Shown piece by piece: positions 1 to 6,136 of a DNA stretch of 11,988 nucleotides. The position numbers were made by a program, and so were the translations under genes. Every line of letters begins with the position of its first letter. Position 1 is the first letter of the stretch. Source of the stretch: a virus (lineage: Duplodnaviria > Heunggongvirae > Uroviricota > Caudoviricetes); IMG/VR virus record IMGVR_UViG_2737471855_000016, positions 1 through 11,988 of that record; one strand, given 5' to 3'. Below the pieces are notes generated by a model. The model made no database searches, was not told the DNA's origin, and saw only the letters and a program-made list of their open reading frames with translations.

Positions 1-900
1 ATGAAGCGTGAAGAAATCGCTGATCTGATGGCGTTTGTCGTCGTTGCAGAGGAGCGTAGCTTCACTCGTGCAGCAGCCCGCCTGAGCATGGCGCAGTCAG
101 CTTTAAGCCAGATAGTGCGTCGTATAGAAGAACGATTGGGATTGCGGCTTCTGACGCGAACCACGCGCAGCGTTGTTCCAACTGAAGCGGGCGAGCATCT
201 TTTGTCTGTTCTTGGCCCTATGTTGCATGACATAGATTCAGCCATGGCATCCCTGAGCGATCTGCAGAACCGCCCATCCGGGACAATACGTATTACTACT
301 GTAGAACATGCAGCAAAAACGATATTGTTACCAGCAATGCGCACATTCCTGAAATCGCATCCTGAAATTGATATTCAGCTCACCATTGATTATGGTTTGA
401 CCGATGTCGTTTCTGAACGTTTTGATGCAGGCGTCCGTCTGGGTGGGGAGATGGATAAAGATATGATCGCCATTCGAATCGGGCCAGATATACCAATGGC
501 TATTGTTGGCTCACCGGATTATTTTTCTCGCCGAAGTGTTCCAACGTCAGTGTCACAATTAATAGATCATCAGGCAATTAATTTGTATCTTCCCACATCG
601 GGTACAGCAAATCGCTGGAGATTAATACGCGGTGGACGTGAAGTTCGTGTTCGCATGGAAGGTCAGCTTTTACTGAATACGATAGACCTGATCATTGATG
701 CTGCAATTGATGGGCATGGATTGGCGTATCTACCTTATGATCAGGTTGAGCGGGCTATTAAAGAAAAAAAACTGATACGTGTTTTGGATAAATTCACACC
801 AGATTTACCCGGTTATCACCTGTACTATCCACACCGTCGACATGCTGGCTCGGCATTCTCATTATTTATAGATAGGCTGAAGTATAAAGGTGCTGTTTAG
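1..900 (+). CDS. LysR-family transcriptional regulator (host gene flanking the island)
   Basis: 299-aa ORF starting at base 1 with a typical LysR N-terminal HTH (FVVVAEERSFTRAAARLSMAQSALSQ...) and a LysR-type co-inducer domain length. GC content looks higher than in the region that follows. Confidence 0.9.
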   Translation: MKREEIADLMAFVVVAEERSFTRAAARLSMAQSALSQIVRRIEERLGLRLLTRTTRSVVPTEAGEHLLSVLGPMLHDIDSAMASLSDLQNRPSGTIRITTVEHAAKTILLPAMRTFLKSHPEIDIQLTIDYGLTDVVSERFDAGVRLGGEMDKDMIAIRIGPDIPMAIVGSPDYFSRRSVPTSVSQLIDHQAINLYLPTSGTANRWRLIRGGREVRVRMEGQLLLNTIDLIIDAAIDGHGLAYLPYDQVERAIKEKKLIRVLDKFTPDLPGYHLYYPHRRHAGSAFSLFIDRLKYKGAV

Positions 901-1327
901 CACTACTTGCTGATACATTAATTTAATTCTTCTCTTAACGTATTCTCAGTTCCTTTCAACGTTTTGGTCATTTTTTATTCTTCGTACAATGGCGACAGAT
1001 GCTGATTATGATACCGAAAACGGGTTTGAACGTGCGAAGCCCGAACGTAGTGTTCGGAGTTCTATGTGCTTTACCGCATTTTGGAGACTATTATTTACAC
1101 TAAATCTGATTTGATATATTGATACTTAAAACATTTGATGCTTCCTTTGTCACTTTTTGGATGTAGGGTACATTTCTTACCTGTTTGTATGTTCTGGTGT
1201 CGTTTCATAGTCTTTTCAATGAGTTGTGATTTTATGAGTTTCCTCTCTTTGCTTGATAATGAGTTAGTTTATCGCTTGTTATTGGCTTGAATGGACTACA
1301 TGACGGACTAAAAAATGAGGGCGATAG

Positions 1328-2566
1328 ATGTCGGTAAAGCCATTAACCGTGACTGAAGTTAAGGGGATGAAACCACGTGAAAAGGACTATGCCGTTTATG
1401 ATGGGTTCGGTTTATTGCTGAATGTGAGTAAAGCCGGTGGGAAAGTGTGGCGTTTCCGTTATAGCCATCCGATAACGAAGAAACGGCAGACATACACGAT
1501 AGGACGTTTTCCTGAATTCTCACTCGCGGAAGCACGGGAAGTACGTGATGAACTTCGGCGAATGATTGCACGTGGAGTTGATCCAGTGACGGAGAAGAAA
1601 AATCGTAAAATTGAGATGTCACTAAAAAATCTACAGACATTTGAAGCTGTTGCTAATGCATGGTTCGCTTTTAAAAAGGGATCTGAATTGCGGAAACCTA
1701 CGCTGTATAATATCGAATATGAAGTATACAAATATCTTGTTCCTTTCTTTGGTAAGTACAGTATAGAAAAAATTACAGCACCAGTAGCTATTAATGCTCT
1801 GGATGCCGTATCCGATAAGAATGCGTTGCAAAAAAAATTAATATCAAGATTAAATGAAATTATGAATTATGCTGTAAATTGTGGAACATTGAAAACAAAT
1901 CCATTACTTAAGATAAAGACTGCATTCACAGGAAAGAAAAATAAATCATTAGCAGCACTACCTGTTGAAAGATTGCCTGAATTTCTGAGCTGGTGGGATA
2001 GTGTGCCTCATACCTATCAAATAGCTCATAATGCACTTTTATTCCAGATATTGACAATGGTCAGGCCAGGTGAGGCGATTAAAGCAGAGTGGTCAGAGAT
2101 TGATTTTGATTCTGGCTTGTGGATTATCCCCGCGCATAAAATGAAATGCCATCGTGAACATGTTGTTCCCTTGTCATCACAGGCTATTAGTATCCTCAGA
2201 ACAATGCAGGAAATAAAAAGAGGGCGTTATGTGTTTTTTTCCTCCAGAACAAAAGATGCGCCTATGGGGAGGAATACTATCAAGACCCCAATTGCTGCCA
2301 GCAAGTTCAAAGGGATTGTAACGTTACATGGTTTTCGTTCAATGTGGAGTACGCTTTTAAATGAGGAGGGATTTAACCCCGATGTAATCGAGGCTGCATT
2401 GGCGCATAAAAGTGGTGATAAAATAAGAGATATTTATAATAGAACTATTTATCTAGAACAGCGTAAGATCATGATGCAATGGGTCGGTGATTTTTTTGAT
2501 GATGCGAGAAAAGGGGTAATTAATAGATCCGGTGGTATGAAAGGTTTAAGAGTTGTAAATGGTTGA
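1328..2566 (+). CDS. int: Tyrosine site-specific integrase, P4/CP4-57 type
   Basis: 412-aa ORF with the P4-type N-terminal arm-binding pattern (KDYAVYDGFGLLLNVSKAGGKVWRFRY) and the C-terminal catalytic region (HGFRSMWSTLL...IRDIYNR). SD-like GAGGG lies 6 nt upstream of the ATG. Confidence 0.93.
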   Translation: MSVKPLTVTEVKGMKPREKDYAVYDGFGLLLNVSKAGGKVWRFRYSHPITKKRQTYTIGRFPEFSLAEAREVRDELRRMIARGVDPVTEKKNRKIEMSLKNLQTFEAVANAWFAFKKGSELRKPTLYNIEYEVYKYLVPFFGKYSIEKITAPVAINALDAVSDKNALQKKLISRLNEIMNYAVNCGTLKTNPLLKIKTAFTGKKNKSLAALPVERLPEFLSWWDSVPHTYQIAHNALLFQILTMVRPGEAIKAEWSEIDFDSGLWIIPAHKMKCHREHVVPLSSQAISILRTMQEIKRGRYVFFSSRTKDAPMGRNTIKTPIAASKFKGIVTLHGFRSMWSTLLNEEGFNPDVIEAALAHKSGDKIRDIYNRTIYLEQRKIMMQWVGDFFDDARKGVINRSGGMKGLRVVNG

Positions 2567-2579
2567 GGAGGTTCAGCAA

Positions 2580-2783
2580 ATGAATACCAATGAAGATATT
2601 TTATTTACTAAAGACGTAATGAAAATCTTGCGATATGGAGCAATGAGTGCATTCATCAATTTCTGGAAAGATGAGAATAATGGTTTTCCTCAGCCGTTCA
2701 GAATTGGACGACGACATACCTGGCACCGTAGAGATGTAGAAGCATGGTTAGATAAACAACGAGAACAAGCCAATCCCCACTAA
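2580..2783 (+). CDS. alpA: AlpA/excisionase-like HTH regulator
   Basis: Small ORF directly after int with the AlpA/Xis-like pattern (ILRYGAMSAF...GFPQPFRIGRRHTWHRRDVEAWL). A strong SD (GAGGAGG) sits 8 nt upstream of the ATG at 2580. An alternative in-frame ATG at 2559 overlaps the int stop (ATGGTTGA). Confidence 0.7.
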   Translation: MNTNEDILFTKDVMKILRYGAMSAFINFWKDENNGFPQPFRIGRRHTWHRRDVEAWLDKQREQANPH

Positions 2784-2796
2784 TAATATCTTTCAT

Positions 2797-2822
2797 ACCC
2801 CGCGTGCAATGCGGGGTTTTTT
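2797..2822 (+). terminator. Rho-independent terminator after alpA
   Basis: Stem ACCCCGC / GCGGGGT with a 7-nt loop, followed by TTTTTT. Confidence 0.7.
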
Positions 2823-2937
2823 GTATGTGAGGTAAAAAAGAAATGAATAAAAATATTGCCGTGACGGGCAAGGGTGACGCACGTCATGTAAAAAAATCTG
2901 TGATTTTCGTGATCTGGTCGTTCTGCGCTTTGATAGT

Positions 2938-3420
2938 GTGAACGTTCGCGTGGTGTATCTGAACGGCGATCCGTGGTTTGTTGCAAAGGATGTCTGCGCT
3001 GCGCTGGAACTGACCAATTCGCGTACGGCGTTGCAGATGCTTGATGATGATGAAAAGGGAGTAAATTTAACTTACACCCCAGGAGGAAATCAGAATATGA
3101 GCATTATCTCTGAGTCAGGTTTCTACAAACTAATAGCCCGTAGCCGCAAAGCAACGACGCAAGGCACATTCGCCCATCGTTTCAGTAACTGGGTATTCAG
3201 AAATGTGATACCGGGTATCAGAAAAACGGGGGCTTATGGTATCCCGTGGGGTGCATTACAGGATTTTTCCCGCCGCAAAGAGCAATACCAGATAAGTGCC
3301 AGCGAGAAGGGGAGGGCGCTACAGGCATGTAAGCGCAAAAAACGTGAACTGGAGGAAGAAGAAAAAAGGCTGATACGTGAATATCAGCCTGAGTTTTACT
3401 TTGGTGAGCGTATTCAGTAA
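2938..3420 (+). CDS. Bro-N domain protein (antirepressor-type), N-terminus apparently disrupted or frameshifted
   Basis: Strong Bro-N pattern (VRVVYLNGDPWFVAKDVCAALEL...LDDDEKGV...TPGGNQNMSIISESGFYKLI...FSNWVFRNVIPGIRKTGAY). The GTG at 2938 has no SD. In-frame codons upstream (DLVVLRFDSV) still look like the first Bro-N strand but have no canonical start. See the finding at 2843-2941. Confidence 0.75.
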   Translation: MNVRVVYLNGDPWFVAKDVCAALELTNSRTALQMLDDDEKGVNLTYTPGGNQNMSIISESGFYKLIARSRKATTQGTFAHRFSNWVFRNVIPGIRKTGAYGIPWGALQDFSRRKEQYQISASEKGRALQACKRKKRELEEEEKRLIREYQPEFYFGERIQ

Positions 3421-3576
3421 CCACACGCGGTGCTGATTATACGGTACATCGTGTTAACCGAGAAGCTACCCACCAGCAAGGCAAAATCTTCTGCTAAAAA
3501 ATGACATATAGCCCGTCGTCCGGAAAGCATGAAATTTTACAAAAATGGAAAATGAAGATTTTTATTGTGCTGGTGG

Positions 3577-3609
3577 GTAAAAACAAAAAGCGCCCCGTTG
3601 CCGGAGCGC
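3577..3609 (-). terminator. Minus-strand intrinsic terminator (distal)
   Basis: On the minus strand: GCGCTCCG, GCAA loop, CGGGGCGC, then TTTTTGTTTTT. Confidence 0.55.
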
Positions 3610-3704
3610 CCTTGCGAACAATTAACCTGCTGCGAAAAAATTGGATCAGTGCAGGGGAATTATATCAACTGTGTGAAGAAGCGCCACAATTGCCGGATAA
3701 CAGG

Positions 3705-3733
3705 CAAAGAAAAGGCCACCTGTCACGGTGGCC
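3705..3733 (-). terminator. Minus-strand intrinsic terminator (proximal) after the lipoprotein ORF
   Basis: Perfect 7-bp stem GGCCACC / GGTGGCC with a 6-nt loop, followed on the minus strand by TTTTCTTTG. Confidence 0.65.
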
Positions 3734-3863
3734 CTTCAACACAAATTGCGCGTTATCCCCAACGCATGAGCATCGCCAACAATGCCATATTTGCGGCTGG
3801 TGGGCAAAGCCTGAGCGATCCTGTGATTACAGGAACTACGGCATTGTCTCGGTTAGGTAGTGC

Positions 3864-4016
3864 TCAACTTTTTTTCAACTCTACATCGCAAGCACGCCGT
3901 AATAAATCGCCCTTATCGTTTGAGCAAAGACTATTTTTCTCAAAGCATGATATTAAGAGAAAGATTGTGATAATTAAAGCAACCATCATTGGTACATGTT
4001 TTTTTAATTTTAACAT
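3864..4016 (-). CDS. Small predicted lipoprotein (50 aa), not in the ORF track
   Basis: Manual minus-strand translation gives MLKLKKHVPMMVALIITIFLLISCFEKNSLCSNDKGDLLRRACDVELKKS: basic n-region, hydrophobic h-region and an L-I-S-C lipobox. AGGAG sits 6 nt upstream of the ATG. It lies 54 nt downstream of the RHH gene ending at 4071 and is followed by two terminators. Confidence 0.5.
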   Translation of the reverse strand: MLKLKKHVPMMVALIITIFLLISCFEKNSLCSNDKGDLLRRACDVELKKS

Positions 4017-4070
4017 CTTTTACTCCTATGATTGCCGCCGCGATTCCCCACACCACGGCGCTGGTGGTTT

Positions 4071-4376
4071 TTATTCTGATTCTTTGGCCTTGCGGCGCTG
4101 TAGTTCTTCACGAGCGATGGCGATAAGTTGCCCGAGTTCTTCCGTAGCTTTAATACCAATTTTTTCCACTTGCGCCAATGCATCGAGAGAAGAAATCAGA
4201 GGATTTTCACTGCTTCCTTCTGCTTGGCGGCGGGCGATCTCCCCGCGCATGGCGGTTACTATGAATCCGGCGTTGCTTTCGCCGTCCAGTTTTACGGATT
4301 CCATGCCATCAAAAGCATCATGTGGGATACGAATTGAAATCTGTTTTGATTTGTCGTTGATAGTGTTTTTTGCCAT
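4071..4376 (-). CDS. Arc/Mnt-like ribbon-helix-helix DNA-binding protein (101 aa), paralog 1
   Basis: N-terminus KSKQISIRIPHDAFDGMESVKLDGESNAGFIVTAMRGEI matches the RHH strand-helix-helix pattern. The start is taken at the second ATG (4376), spaced 6 nt from AGGAGA; the ORF-track start at 4415 has no SD. The C-terminal tail RRKAKESE is shared with paralog 2. Confidence 0.75.
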   Translation of the reverse strand: MAKNTINDKSKQISIRIPHDAFDGMESVKLDGESNAGFIVTAMRGEIARRQAEGSSENPLISSLDALAQVEKIGIKATEELGQLIAIAREELQRRKAKESE

Positions 4377-4398
4377 GTGCATTCTCCTAAACAAAAGA

Positions 4399-4475
4399 TG
4401 TGATTCAGTATACACAAAAAAGAATCACAAAAAACACTTTACCTGTGATTCAGTTGAATTTAATTTAAATCACAC
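4399..4475. promoter_or_regulatory. Promoter/operator region of RHH paralog 1 with TGTGATTC / GAATCACA inverted repeats
   Basis: TGTGATTC at 4399-4406 and 4444-4451 with inverted partners GAATCACA at 4422-4429 and AATCACA at 4468-4474. A minus-strand -10-like TATACT is the reverse complement of 4407-4412. The -35 is not convincing. Confidence 0.5.
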
Positions 4476-4500
4476 CTCAGTAAGAGGATGTAAACGACAA

Positions 4501-4532
4501 CGCCCCGAACTGTTTGCGGCAGTAGCGGGGCG
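4501..4532 (-). terminator. Candidate minus-strand terminator/hairpin separating the two RHH units
   Basis: GC stem CGCCCCG / CGGGGCG with an 18-nt loop; on the minus strand it is followed by TTGTCGTTT, a weak U-tract. Confidence 0.35.
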
Positions 4533-4652
4533 TCTAACCAAACCATTAATTGAGGTAACGATTATGGCTATAAAAGAGCATAGCTTACTCTTTATACACA
4601 CACAAACGCCCCGGAAACGGAATAATCCGTTTCATAGTTCGGTTTTGTGCAC

Positions 4653-4880
4653 TCATCCTGGCGGTCGGTTTTTGCCGGATTTAAGCCGCCGTGGGTATTT
4701 ATCGACAAAATCTTCAAGGGCAAATTTTTCTGGTGGCACTAAGCGCGGCGCTGGTGGTGGTATTTTTGTTCTGGTTAGTTCTTCCTCAAGTCTGGCGCAG
4801 GCTTCTGACTGCCTTTGCCGGATGATTTCATCATCTTGCGTTTGCGTGTCTTGTATTGGTGATAGTGTGTTGTTGGTCAT
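4653..4880 (-). CDS. Hypothetical protein (75 aa), second gene of the RHH paralog-2 unit
   Basis: ORF with an AGGG SD-like motif 6 nt upstream, 57 nt downstream of the RHH gene at 4938-5117. Acidic N-terminus and a Pro-rich segment (PPPAPRLVPP). No family recognised. Confidence 0.55.
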   Translation of the reverse strand: MTNNTLSPIQDTQTQDDEIIRQRQSEACARLEEELTRTKIPPPAPRLVPPEKFALEDFVDKYPRRLKSGKNRPPG

Positions 4881-4937
4881 GATACTGCCCTGTAAAGCAA
4901 TGCGCCGTAGTACCTCACACCACGGCGCTGATAGTGA

Positions 4938-5117
4938 TTATTCTGATTCTTTGGTCTTGCGGCGCTGGCGGCGTTTGATCTCGCCTCGCATGGCTGTAAC
5001 GATAAATTGCGCAGTGCTCTCGCCTGTTTCTTTTACTTGCTCCATAGCCTCAACAACTTCATGCGGGGCGCGAGCCTGTAATTTCTGTGATTTGTTATTG
5101 ATATGGTCTCTTTCCAT
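4938..5117 (-). CDS. Arc/Mnt-like ribbon-helix-helix DNA-binding protein (59 aa), paralog 2; below the ORF-track size cutoff
   Basis: Manual translation gives MERDHINNKSQKLQARAPHEVVEAMEQVKETGESTAQFIVTAMRGEIKRRQRRKTKESE. From memory it is strikingly similar in pattern to P22 Arc (strand, helix A, G-x-S turn, helix B). An AAGGGA SD-like motif lies upstream. It is divergent from the replication operon. Confidence 0.7.
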   Translation of the reverse strand: MERDHINNKSQKLQARAPHEVVEAMEQVKETGESTAQFIVTAMRGEIKRRQRRKTKESE

Positions 5118-5138
5118 TTCTGGTTCCCTTTGTGATTA

Positions 5139-5217
5139 CTGGAATCCAGTATACACGAAAAAGACCAAAACAAAACGCTTGAAGTGGATTCCACTTAGTG
5201 ATTATACTGGAATCCAG
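5139..5217. promoter_or_regulatory. Divergent promoter/operator region between RHH paralog 2 and the replication operon
   Basis: Near-palindromes CTGGAATCCAG (5139-5149, 5207-5217) and GTGGATTCCAC (5185-5195). Plus-strand candidate promoter: TTGAAG (5179-5184), 18-bp spacer, TATACT (5203-5208). Minus-strand -10-like TATACT is the reverse complement of 5148-5153. Confidence 0.5.
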
Positions 5218-5313
5218 CTGAGTGTTTATCACTCAATGCAAACGAGGCTGAAAAGGATTGCCGTCCTTTCGCAGCCTCTGACCACCAACGATAGCGAAAG
5301 TATCGAGGTAGCT

Positions 5314-5517
5314 ATGAGAAATCATATCACACACCCGCAAGGGCGGGACTCACACAACCTGAATAAATACATCTGGCGTTTTATCGCCCTGAGCACGGCA
5401 CAACCGCGCGTAATCCACATCGAGGCCACCAGCGAACAGGAAGCACGCCAGCAATCCCCGGCTGGCTGCGTGATGGTATTCGCTGCCCGTATTCGTCAGG
5501 AGGTGTGCCATGCCTGA
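5314..5517 (+). CDS. Hypothetical small protein (67 aa), first gene of the replication operon
   Basis: ATG preceded by GAGGT at about 6 nt. Its stop overlaps the next start (ATGCCTGA). It shares a frame with the long spurious 3565-5517 ORF, so only this 3' segment is taken as real. Confidence 0.4.
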   Translation: MRNHITHPQGRDSHNLNKYIWRFIALSTAQPRVIHIEATSEQEARQQSPAGCVMVFAARIRQEVCHA

Positions 5518-5830
5518 CATGACCAATTACCAGTACCTGATTAATCCGCATTTTAACTGTGAGCATGATATTGCTAAAAAGGTTTATTCCGCTGCGGATG
5601 GGGCTACTAACAATATATCAATGGCTGTTGCGTCAATTGGTAGCCTGATGTGGCATGCGTCAGAAAATGAGGACTATGACGAAAAGGCCATGCGCATTGA
5701 TATGGGTAATATCGGTTTGTTACTGGCAATGCTTGGACATTTTGATATTTCGTTACGGTGCACCATTGAAAATGCCACAGATGCATTAAATGCTATAAAG
5801 AAAGCGAATACTGATTCAAATCGGGGATAA
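5510..5830 (+). CDS. Hypothetical protein (106 aa)
   Basis: Strong SD (AGGAGG) 6 nt upstream of the ATG; translationally coupled to the upstream ORF. No family recognised. Confidence 0.7.
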   Translation: MPDMTNYQYLINPHFNCEHDIAKKVYSAADGATNNISMAVASIGSLMWHASENEDYDEKAMRIDMGNIGLLLAMLGHFDISLRCTIENATDALNAIKKANTDSNRG

Positions 5831-5836
5831 ATAATC

Positions 5837-6136
5837 ATGAGAACGTATTTATCTGGCTTGACTGCCAGCGGTTATGCACACCCTAAAATTGTCCCCGGCG
5901 CTATTTATCTGGATAAGAACGGTAACAGAGTAACGGTAAAAAAACTGATGTTTGACCGTGTGTATTTTATCCGTGATGGCTATTCATTTCTTAGTTCGCT
6001 GAACGTGGAGATCTTTATTTGCAGATTCCGGCGGGAAATCCCGACTTTCAGAAATAACCGTGTGTCACGTGTGGATGTGGATAAAAAACTACAGGAACTG
6101 AAAAACATGATTGCCGCGTGGAGAGAGCAGAAATGA
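5837..6136 (+). CDS. Hypothetical protein (99 aa)
   Basis: GGGGA SD-like motif upstream; its stop overlaps the primase start (ATGA at 6133-6136). Confidence 0.6.
   Translation: MRTYLSGLTASGYAHPKIVPGAIYLDKNGNRVTVKKLMFDRVYFIRDGYSFLSSLNVEIFICRFRREIPTFRNNRVSRVDVDKKLQELKNMIAAWREQK

Follow-up and report, generated by a model that had tools for sequence, protein, structure and literature searches.

A control region and first operon ahead of the primase in an Escherichia coli satellite island: a probable variant of the P4 left operon with a predicted repressor and antisense-RNA lock

Positions 5118–6136 of IMG/VR record IMGVR_UViG_2737471855_000016 (Caudoviricetes) probably form the control region of the replication module, together with its first operon, in an approximately 11-kb satellite island that resembles phage-inducible chromosomal islands (PICIs). 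The whole stretch analysed, positions 1–11,988 of that record, is hereafter called the window. We read the locus as a variant of the left operon of satellite phage P4 in which a ribbon-helix-helix (RHH) repressor and a cis-antisense RNA would together form the lock on the primase. The window is 100% identical to the chromosome of E. coli RM10410, where the island carries an integrase gene and has pgrR and mppA on either side. A first-pass annotation, made from the letters alone, had described a divergent small gene and three coupled open reading frames (ORFs) of 67, 106 and 99 amino acids (aa) leading into the primase, and had proposed a helper-sensing or derepression module; its observation is confirmed and its interpretation partly supported. 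The NCBI annotation pipeline PGAP, run on the identical RM10410 sequence, calls the same genes, at 4938–5117 (minus strand), 5314–5517, 5510–5830, 5837–6136 and from 6133 on. The operon and its divergent neighbour are as follows:

4938–5117, minus strand: ribbon-helix-helix protein of the YlcI/YnfO family ('RHH paralog 2'), which may repress the divergent promoters, its own included.
5314–5517, plus strand: ORF1, 67 aa, Icd-like/Kil family (NF033153), the first translated gene of the operon.
5499–5517, plus strand: coupling junction GAGGTGTGCCATGCCTGA, with a Shine–Dalgarno (SD) sequence, the ORF2 start and the ORF1 stop.
5510–5830, plus strand: ORF2, 106 aa, a narrow-family predicted helical hairpin in a variable slot.
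5837–6136, plus strand: ORF3, 99 aa, DUF4222/RgdR family (PF13973), its stop overlapping the primase start.
6133–7950, plus strand: primase/helicase, with Pfam domains D5_N, DUF5906 and Pox_D5 above their cutoffs.

ORF1 matches the NCBIfam Icd-like model NF033153 at 6e-20 (71.1 bits, cutoff 25), and P4 Kil, which corresponds to the last 65 codons of the P4 ORF annotated 'cI gene product', matches the same model at 1.6e-21 (76.1 bits); the link between the two proteins runs through this profile only. The ORF1/ORF2 overlap is ATGCCTGA at 5510–5517, and the surrounding junction GAGGTGTGCCATGCCTGA is near-identical to the junction through which P4 passes from kil to epsilon, GAGGTGTCCCGTGCGTAA, again by an 8-nucleotide (nt) overlap. 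Because of the profile match and this near-identical junction, the operon appears to be a homologue of the P4 left operon and a variant of it. The Sakai Sp7 operon begins with ECs1577, which shares 52% identity with ORF1, and the dN/dS of ORF1 is 0.22; a phage collection searched with the DNA and with the ORF1 protein yielded one satellite-like record and no P4 match. Expression of the Icd protein of phage P1 kills cells or blocks their division. In P4, Kil kills cells, translation of Eta prevents termination, and eta is coupled to an alpA homologue (PMC10111431). By analogy with Kil and Icd, ORF1 is probably toxic; we infer that it serves mainly as a translational gate. The label 'transcriptional repressor' carried by PHROG Icd-like families probably dates from the time when the P4 cI ORF was annotated as a protein gene. 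Natural in-frame fusions of Icd-like and ORF2 sequences (...ARIRQGCAMPDM...) occur in protein clusters P0001 (171 aa, 36 members) and P0020 (324 aa), and in one fusion variant the gene call runs from an Eta-like MAHKTKAT start through both.

The overlaps on which the first-pass annotation built its coupling, ATGCCTGA and the ATGA at 6133–6136 between ORF3 and the primase, are both real; ORF2 and ORF3 are instead separated by a 6-nt gap (5831–5836), with no overlap. That annotation had recognised none of the three small proteins, which turns out to hold for ORF2 alone, the one ORF without a family of known function. Profile searches and structure prediction, which it had suggested, gave families for ORF1 and ORF3, and for ORF2 a helical hairpin with no informative structural match. 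ORF3 hits Pfam DUF4222 (PF13973) at 1e-16 (60.7 bits, gathering cutoff 27) and aligns over its full length with RgdR (ECs1581) at 31% identity, with PGA in place of the RGD motif at residues 20–22; a PDB sequence search with ORF3 found no matches. A DUF4222 gene lies directly upstream of the primase in six of the related loci (L002–L006 and L012), and ORF3 is best taken as a putative small basic DNA-binding accessory of the primase. The primase itself scores 97.5 bits against TIGR01613, under the cutoff of 108.7.

ORF2 has a single profile match, phrog_15327, a PHROG of unknown function. A deep HMMER search among 1.84 billion proteins returned 15 representatives at E ≤ 1e-3, of which some are repeat proteins and probably spurious. 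The AlphaFold2 model consists of two long helices (pLDDT 78), and a structure search with it gave no match better than E = 0.5 and none that was informative. A homologue in Superficieibacter is 41% identical and has the same kind of 8-nt overlap at its start. The slot between the Icd-like and DUF4222 genes varies, with one 106-aa gene here and three genes of 61–80 aa in other islands.

The first-pass annotation had noted that the equivalent slot in P4 holds a helper derepressor, and this is correct, the gene after kil being epsilon. The three small proteins might then themselves sense or derepress the helper as epsilon does, as antirepressors or as sensors that bind helper-phage proteins: ORF2 sits exactly at the epsilon position behind the same coupling junction, a slot that varies between islands is typical of helper-specific accessory genes, and in ECOR61 a phage protein triggers a locus with Icd-like and primase genes (bioRxiv 10.1101/2023.04.06.535777). 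We consider this unlikely for the trio. None of the three resembles P4 epsilon, orf151 or orf106: BLASTP comparisons of ORF2 and ORF3 with epsilon and orf106 found nothing, and ORF2 did not align with epsilon even at E ≤ 100; the ORF1 and ORF3 families have other activities, namely killing or division block and non-specific DNA binding (PMC10111431, PMC3378721); the predicted fold of ORF2 is a generic helical hairpin; and the published helper input of Gram-negative PICIs is transcription of alpA (PMC6092414). The helper-sensing idea survives only for ORF2, through its position and the ECOR61 report. ORF2 is a positional analogue of epsilon only; we take it as an accessory protein that islands exchange and that may act on the helper phage.

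Upstream of the operon, the divergent YlcI/YnfO protein has the strand-helix-helix fold that characterizes ribbon-helix-helix proteins, with no matches in PDB sequence searches. The palindrome TGGAWTCCA occurs three times in the window, always within the 196-nt intergenic region (5140, 5185 and 5208), compared with 0.14 occurrences expected by chance, and none of 200 shuffles reaches three. These palindromes and the promoter elements around them are:

5138–5150, no strand: candidate operator O1, palindrome ACTGGAATCCAGT, abutting a minus-strand −10-like TATACT (5153..5148).
5179–5208, plus strand: predicted rightward promoter P_R, with −35 TTGAAG at 5179–5184, an 18-nt spacer and −10 TATACT at 5203–5208.
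5182–5196, no strand: candidate operator O2, palindrome AAGTGGATTCCACTT, within the P_R spacer.
5206–5217, no strand: candidate operator O3, ACTGGAATCCAG, over the P_R −10 and start (inverted repeat I14).

P_R is sigma-70-like with a predicted start near 5215, and the minus-strand TATACT at 5153..5148 is taken as a putative leftward promoter element. The palindromic operators that the first-pass annotation had placed over both candidate promoters are thus borne out, two at P_R and one abutting the leftward element. In the nine intergenic regions compared, a CAGTATAC box is conserved beside an island-specific half-site, and eight of the nine keep the −35 box TTGA(A/C)G with a −10-like hexamer 17–18 nt downstream. 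The shared order of elements is RHH start codon, SD, operator half-site, CAGTATAC box, A-rich tract, −35, operator, −10 hexamer and operator. The operator sequences vary from island to island, as do the RHH residues predicted to lie in the DNA-reading strand (KLQA, ALKA, QLNA, TVAA and others). Such co-variation is the pattern expected of an immunity-specific repressor, and three island-specific palindromes set on conserved promoter elements are consistent with binding of the RHH protein to these operators. The broader claim of a divergent control region in front of a coupled operon leading into the primase of a P4/PICI-like satellite is supported.

Between P_R and ORF1 lies a structured segment, which we read, together with a second copy upstream, as follows:

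5220–5234, no strand: short inverted repeat or hairpin, GAGTG-TTTAT-CACTC, at the beginning of the P_R leader.
5236–5314, minus strand: predicted cis-antisense RNA of approximately 80 nt, starting near the ORF1 start codon and ending in a hairpin (5278..5244) and a weak U tract.
5321–5329, minus strand: candidate extended −10 promoter of the antisense RNA, TGaTATGAT, inside ORF1 codons 3–6, as read from the sequence.
4475–4576, minus strand: second copy of the antisense-RNA element, with a hairpin at 4500–4533, followed by a degenerate Icd-like start at 4564.

The nested hairpins that the first-pass annotation had described in the 5′ leader exist, including the larger one, GAGGCTG/AAAGGAT...GTCCTTT/CAGCCTC, at 5244–5278; what is less well supported is their role as mRNA structures. 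They could in principle act in the plus-strand leader, as an attenuator, a stabilizing 5′ structure, a protein site or the target of a trans-acting C4-like RNA, with no antisense RNA at all. The 117-nt plus-strand leader does fold well (−36.1 kcal/mol, z = −4.1, none of 200 shuffles as stable), a small plus-strand hairpin (5289–5305) has the SD at its foot, and in related islands a C4 RNA from the sense strand acts on the SD region. The hairpin preceding the Icd-like gene is found in 16 of the related loci fetched, at the equivalent of 5244–5278, and here the strands part. The minus-strand fold is the more stable in 16 of 16 loci (summed −446.8 versus −322.5 kcal/mol for the same 70-nt windows on both strands), cells of the alignment that pair only as G.U number 55 for the minus and 3 for the plus strand, and the T-rich 3′ flank is present on the minus strand only. 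C4 RNA was tried as the leader element and dropped, with no C4 or isrK match in the window at E ≤ 1. A plus-strand role is accordingly quite improbable. Because of the G.U asymmetry, the stability of the minus strand and its T-rich tail, the simplest reading is that the hairpins belong to a minus-strand cis-antisense RNA of approximately 80 nt, with an intrinsic terminator, predicted to lie over the SD of ORF1.

RNAalifold, applied to the 17-sequence minus-strand alignment, gives a 13-pair hairpin and an upstream stem-loop. In this alignment 96% of cells are paired, against 37–49% in slid controls, compensatory changes occur in 14 of 22 pairs and none of 500 shuffles does as well, a statistic that overstates independence since the loci are mutually related. 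In all 16 loci a minus-strand −10-like hexamer (TATGAT, TATGCT or TAGACT) precedes the start-codon complement by 4–10 nt, and the predicted RNA is complementary to the SD and leader of ORF1. Covariance model R1 scores 67.9 bits at 5236–5314 and 77.9 bits at 4475–4576, both copies being in its training set; it matched only the sites from which it was built and gives no independent support for the antisense RNA. Rfam has no family matching the element (window at E ≤ 1, the 16 loci at gathering score), and a literature search found no small RNA described in O-island 51 (OI-51). The element appears to be a previously undescribed RNA without an Rfam match. It is absent from P4 and from L009; L005 has one upstream, beside a truncated Icd-like start. 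At the position of the small hairpin, other islands have a different inverted repeat (CACCTTG..CAAGGTG), which in L003 scores as a second minus-strand terminator. The second copy in the window belongs to a partial duplication of the control module: 4036–4440 corresponds to 4903–5180 (RHH gene, its 5′ region and promoter box) with 77–85% identity over repeat families, traced as D1–D5, and the upstream copy retains the antisense-RNA element and the degenerate Icd-like start.

A small protein whose ribosome-binding site is covered by a cis-antisense RNA has the layout of a type I toxin–antitoxin pair, as in SymE/SymR. ORF1 and the antisense RNA could accordingly be such a module, or one of abortive infection, with killing or arrest on phage attack as its primary purpose and control of satellite replication secondary. 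The lethality of P4 Kil (PMC10111431) and the naming of the Icd-like protein as likely effector of phage-triggered death in ECOR61 (bioRxiv 10.1101/2023.04.06.535777) point the same way. We find this doubtful as the primary role: among the related loci fetched, none has the Icd-like gene as a stand-alone pair and most have a primase after it, the same SD/start/stop junction connects it to the next gene here and in P4, and all six linked genes were needed in ECOR61. The toxin–antitoxin reading does not exclude a P4-like translational gate and is compatible with it.

The frame of ORF1 continues far upstream, across the control region and the minus-strand genes. The features on this side of the operon are:

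1328–2566: integrase.
2559–2783: AlpA-like helix-turn-helix (HTH) gene.
2938–3420: BRO-N gene, a frameshifted pseudogene.
3556–5313, plus strand: upstream extension of the ORF1 frame, free of stops for 586 codons (1758 nt), an eta-like nested ORF antisense through three minus-strand genes.
4071–4376, minus strand: YlcI/YnfO paralog 1 (NF041551 at 4e-18), in the duplicated upstream control module.
4653–4880, minus strand: hypothetical gene.

Between 3556 and 5313 the ORF1 frame holds no stops where the other two contain 37 and 40 (P about 3e-14), and a long open frame is also present in 12 related loci, each with P below 2e-4. An origin as a codon-aligned antisense shadow ORF was rejected, the minus-strand genes being in a different phase. 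Every minus-strand gene inside the frame is stop-free in this phase, with a synonymous resampling probability of 0.08–0.84 per gene, and the intergenic lengths differ only by multiples of three (196, 199, 190, 193 and 187 nt). In L003–L005 the frame opens at or beside the alpA stop, in L003 exactly at the stop codon, and an in-frame ATG follows 9–11 nt after it. Between alpA and the Icd-like gene, L003 has no plus-strand terminator and L004 only two weak 5-bp candidates.

The BRO-N pseudogene lies in the ORF1 frame, a sign that both may descend from one uninterrupted Bro-type Eta ORF of about 880 codons. The open stretch could then be a functionless relic of that gene: three in-frame stops (3418, 3502 and 3553) separate it from the pseudogene, its translation is Cys/Ser-rich and not protein-like, and five of 18 related loci lack a long open frame. 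We rate a relic as rather unlikely, because one would be expected to gain stops at the rate of the other frames. The frame has stayed open through real minus-strand genes that have diverged to 27–68% identity, and the length of the intergenic region changes only in whole codons.

The mechanism we propose is pieced together from the anatomy of the locus and from P4. In the resting island, the RHH protein on O1–O3 would repress P_R and its own promoter. The approximately 80-nt antisense RNA, in place of the C4/CI RNA of P4, would pair with the SD region of leaky P_R transcripts and block translation of ORF1. The untranslated mRNA would be prone to Rho termination, and the primase would stay off because the downstream genes depend on coupling. 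Induction could follow by either of two routes. The repressor may be removed, or transcripts arriving from upstream may be translated in the long in-frame ORF. In this second case, in the manner of P4 Eta, ribosomes would read across the control region as far as the stop at ATGCCTGA and by coupling go on to translate ORF2, ORF3 and the primase.

Several points, in addition to the relatedness of the loci behind the covariation, weigh against this scheme. The U tract of the antisense terminator is poor in the window (GUUUGCAUU), and for a promoter there is just a −10-like element. A strong plus-strand intrinsic terminator (2797–2817; 9-bp stem and T run) lies 14 nt past the AlpA-like gene, where L003 and L004 have none like it at the equivalent position, and because of it the idea that read-through from alpA feeds the long ORF is weakened for this window. 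This terminator and the three in-frame stops within 3418–3555 weaken, for this window, the case that the long ORF is transcribed and translated. Five of the 18 loci are without the frame, and what is left here could be a Bro-type Eta gene in decay.

The locus is widespread. The stretch 4000–8000 is matched in 1716 of 5426 complete E. coli genomes, and the layout of an Icd-like gene, one to three small ORFs and, usually, a DUF4222 gene overlapping the primase start also occurs in E. coli islands at other attachment sites; an Icd-like gene followed by a primase is seen in several of the Enterobacterales loci fetched. Conservation of the ORFs, on which the first-pass annotation had made its proposal depend, is evident in this recurrence and in dN/dS values of 0.11–0.54, calculated on few sites. 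Past the primase, the island continues with a small ORF, a gene for SSB (the protein that binds single-stranded DNA) and the ClpP–capsid fusion. Just 3′ of the primase gene, at 8023–8136, is a large inverted repeat, close to perfect and containing repeated GTTCACC/ACTGTTCACC units; it gave spurious microRNA-family matches in Rfam and is probably the replication origin of the island. The Rfam int-alpA RNA motif (RF02996) adjoins the integrase gene in L007 (1117–1185), L013 (1153–1218), L014 (803–868) and L015 (902–967), with no match in the window at E ≤ 1.

As for its class, the island of approximately 11 kb has the int, alpA and pri-rep genes by which Gram-negative PICIs of approximately 10–15 kb are recognized. 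It departs from their unidirectional rightward transcription without a divergent regulator, with three annotated minus-strand genes at 4071–5117. A ClpP-like protease fused to a major capsid protein (9560–11449) is its only morphogenesis gene. From the set that marks capsid-forming PICIs (cf-PICIs), namely capsid, protease, portal, connectors, HNH, TerS and TerL, it has this fusion, followed by two small ORFs before mppA; no portal, terminase or connector genes were found in the island before mppA. Because its morphogenesis genes are limited to the capsid–protease fusion, the island is not a complete cf-PICI.

AlpA is the only known switch of Gram-negative PICIs and cf-PICIs (PMC6092414), which makes the control candidates described here of interest. 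More tentatively, and with the balance somewhat against it, many enterobacterial satellites may have swapped the C4/CI RNA for an RHH repressor with island-specific operators and a cis-antisense RNA lock, both bypassed by translated read-through transcripts along an Eta-like bridge ORF that would be maintained stop-free even opposite the repressor genes. If so, a family-wide two-layer lock would provide Gram-negative PICIs with the repressor and immunity logic that has been missing. The RHH gene with its operators, the antisense-strand RNA structure and the Eta-like frame offer testable candidates for silencing of the island and for induction that reaches the primase. The operon type also joins subjects that are usually treated separately: P4 Kil, 'Icd-like' annotations and the regulator RgdR of enterohaemorrhagic E. 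coli (EHEC). The analysis further indicates that the 'Ash' peptide motif, conserved in what PGAP names the 'ash family protein' (MVGWAGASSEAPVPF...), arises when an RNA gene is translated: at 4750–4837 in L005 and at 8420–8507 in P4 (L020) it is the C4/CI antisense RNA gene read in frame.

Similar to the left operon of P4 (PLE/PLL, eta/kil, CI RNA, epsilon, orf151, orf106 and alpha), the first translated gene in the window belongs to the Kil/Icd family, with 65–67 aa in the two systems, the SD/start/stop junction is near-identical and the operon ends in a primase, here probably of the P4 type. In both, the Kil/Icd gene is the C-terminal part of a much longer in-frame ORF, whose translation is predicted here; in P4 the kil frame is open for 456 nt upstream, eta being its in-frame extension. 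Unlike the window, P4 has a C4/CI RNA (RF01695) and an isrK/seqA element upstream of kil, and it has epsilon, orf151 and orf106, which lack homologues here. The window in turn has the divergent RHH gene with its operators and a long ORF that runs antisense through three genes, and none of sid, delta and psu of P4 is annotated in it. As in P4, isrK and C4 RNAs immediately precede the Icd-like gene in L005 and L009.

In the immI operon of phage P1 (c4 RNA, icd and ant), Icd translation is needed for downstream expression and an antisense-type RNA targets the icd ribosome-binding site. An Icd-family ORF heads the operon there as in the window, and the NCBIfam model is named after Icd. The P1 C4 RNA is encoded on the same strand and acts in trans, whereas the RNA predicted in the window would be a true cis-antisense RNA; the downstream cargo is an antirepressor in P1 and a primase here. 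In P22 sar RNA, SymR/SymE and lambda OOP, a short RNA with an intrinsic terminator lies opposite the ribosome-binding site of a regulated or toxic gene. The predicted antisense RNA has the same layout, with no sequence relation to them and no Rfam match.

Gram-negative PICIs are described as unidirectionally transcribed and without a known repressor; AlpA activates the downstream genes, and the helper input is transcription of alpA (PMC6092414). PICIs and cf-PICIs such as EcCICFT073 and EcCIEDL933 (OI-51/Sakai Sp7) share with the window int, an alpA-like HTH gene, an Icd-like gene and small ORFs, and also a DUF4222 gene (RgdR in OI-51), primase, SSB and capsid genes (PMC6092414, PMC3378721, bioRxiv 10.1101/2022.09.08.507074). 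Unlike described PICIs, the window has three minus-strand genes, two of them RHH paralogs, and, unlike cf-PICIs, a ClpP–capsid fusion rather than the full packaging set. In ECOR61, a locus with Icd-like and primase genes leads to cell death when a phage accessory protein is expressed; the Icd-like protein was called the likely effector, and all six linked genes were needed (bioRxiv 10.1101/2023.04.06.535777). We liken that locus to the window by these two genes only. RgdR (ECs1581), a 99-aa basic protein of EHEC OI-51, activates LEE1 in the enterocyte effacement locus (LEE), represses motility and binds DNA non-specifically, and the RGD motif at its residues 20–22 has been linked to LEE activation (PMC3378721). 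ECs1581 lies directly upstream of the primase and overlaps its start in the Sakai prophage-like element Sp7, which carries capsid, portal and terminase genes. RgdR and ORF3 share the Pfam family, the length of 99 aa and the position overlapping the primase start, and differ in sequence (31% identity, PGA for RGD) and in host strain context. Regulation of the LEE is probably not the native role of the DUF4222/RgdR protein.

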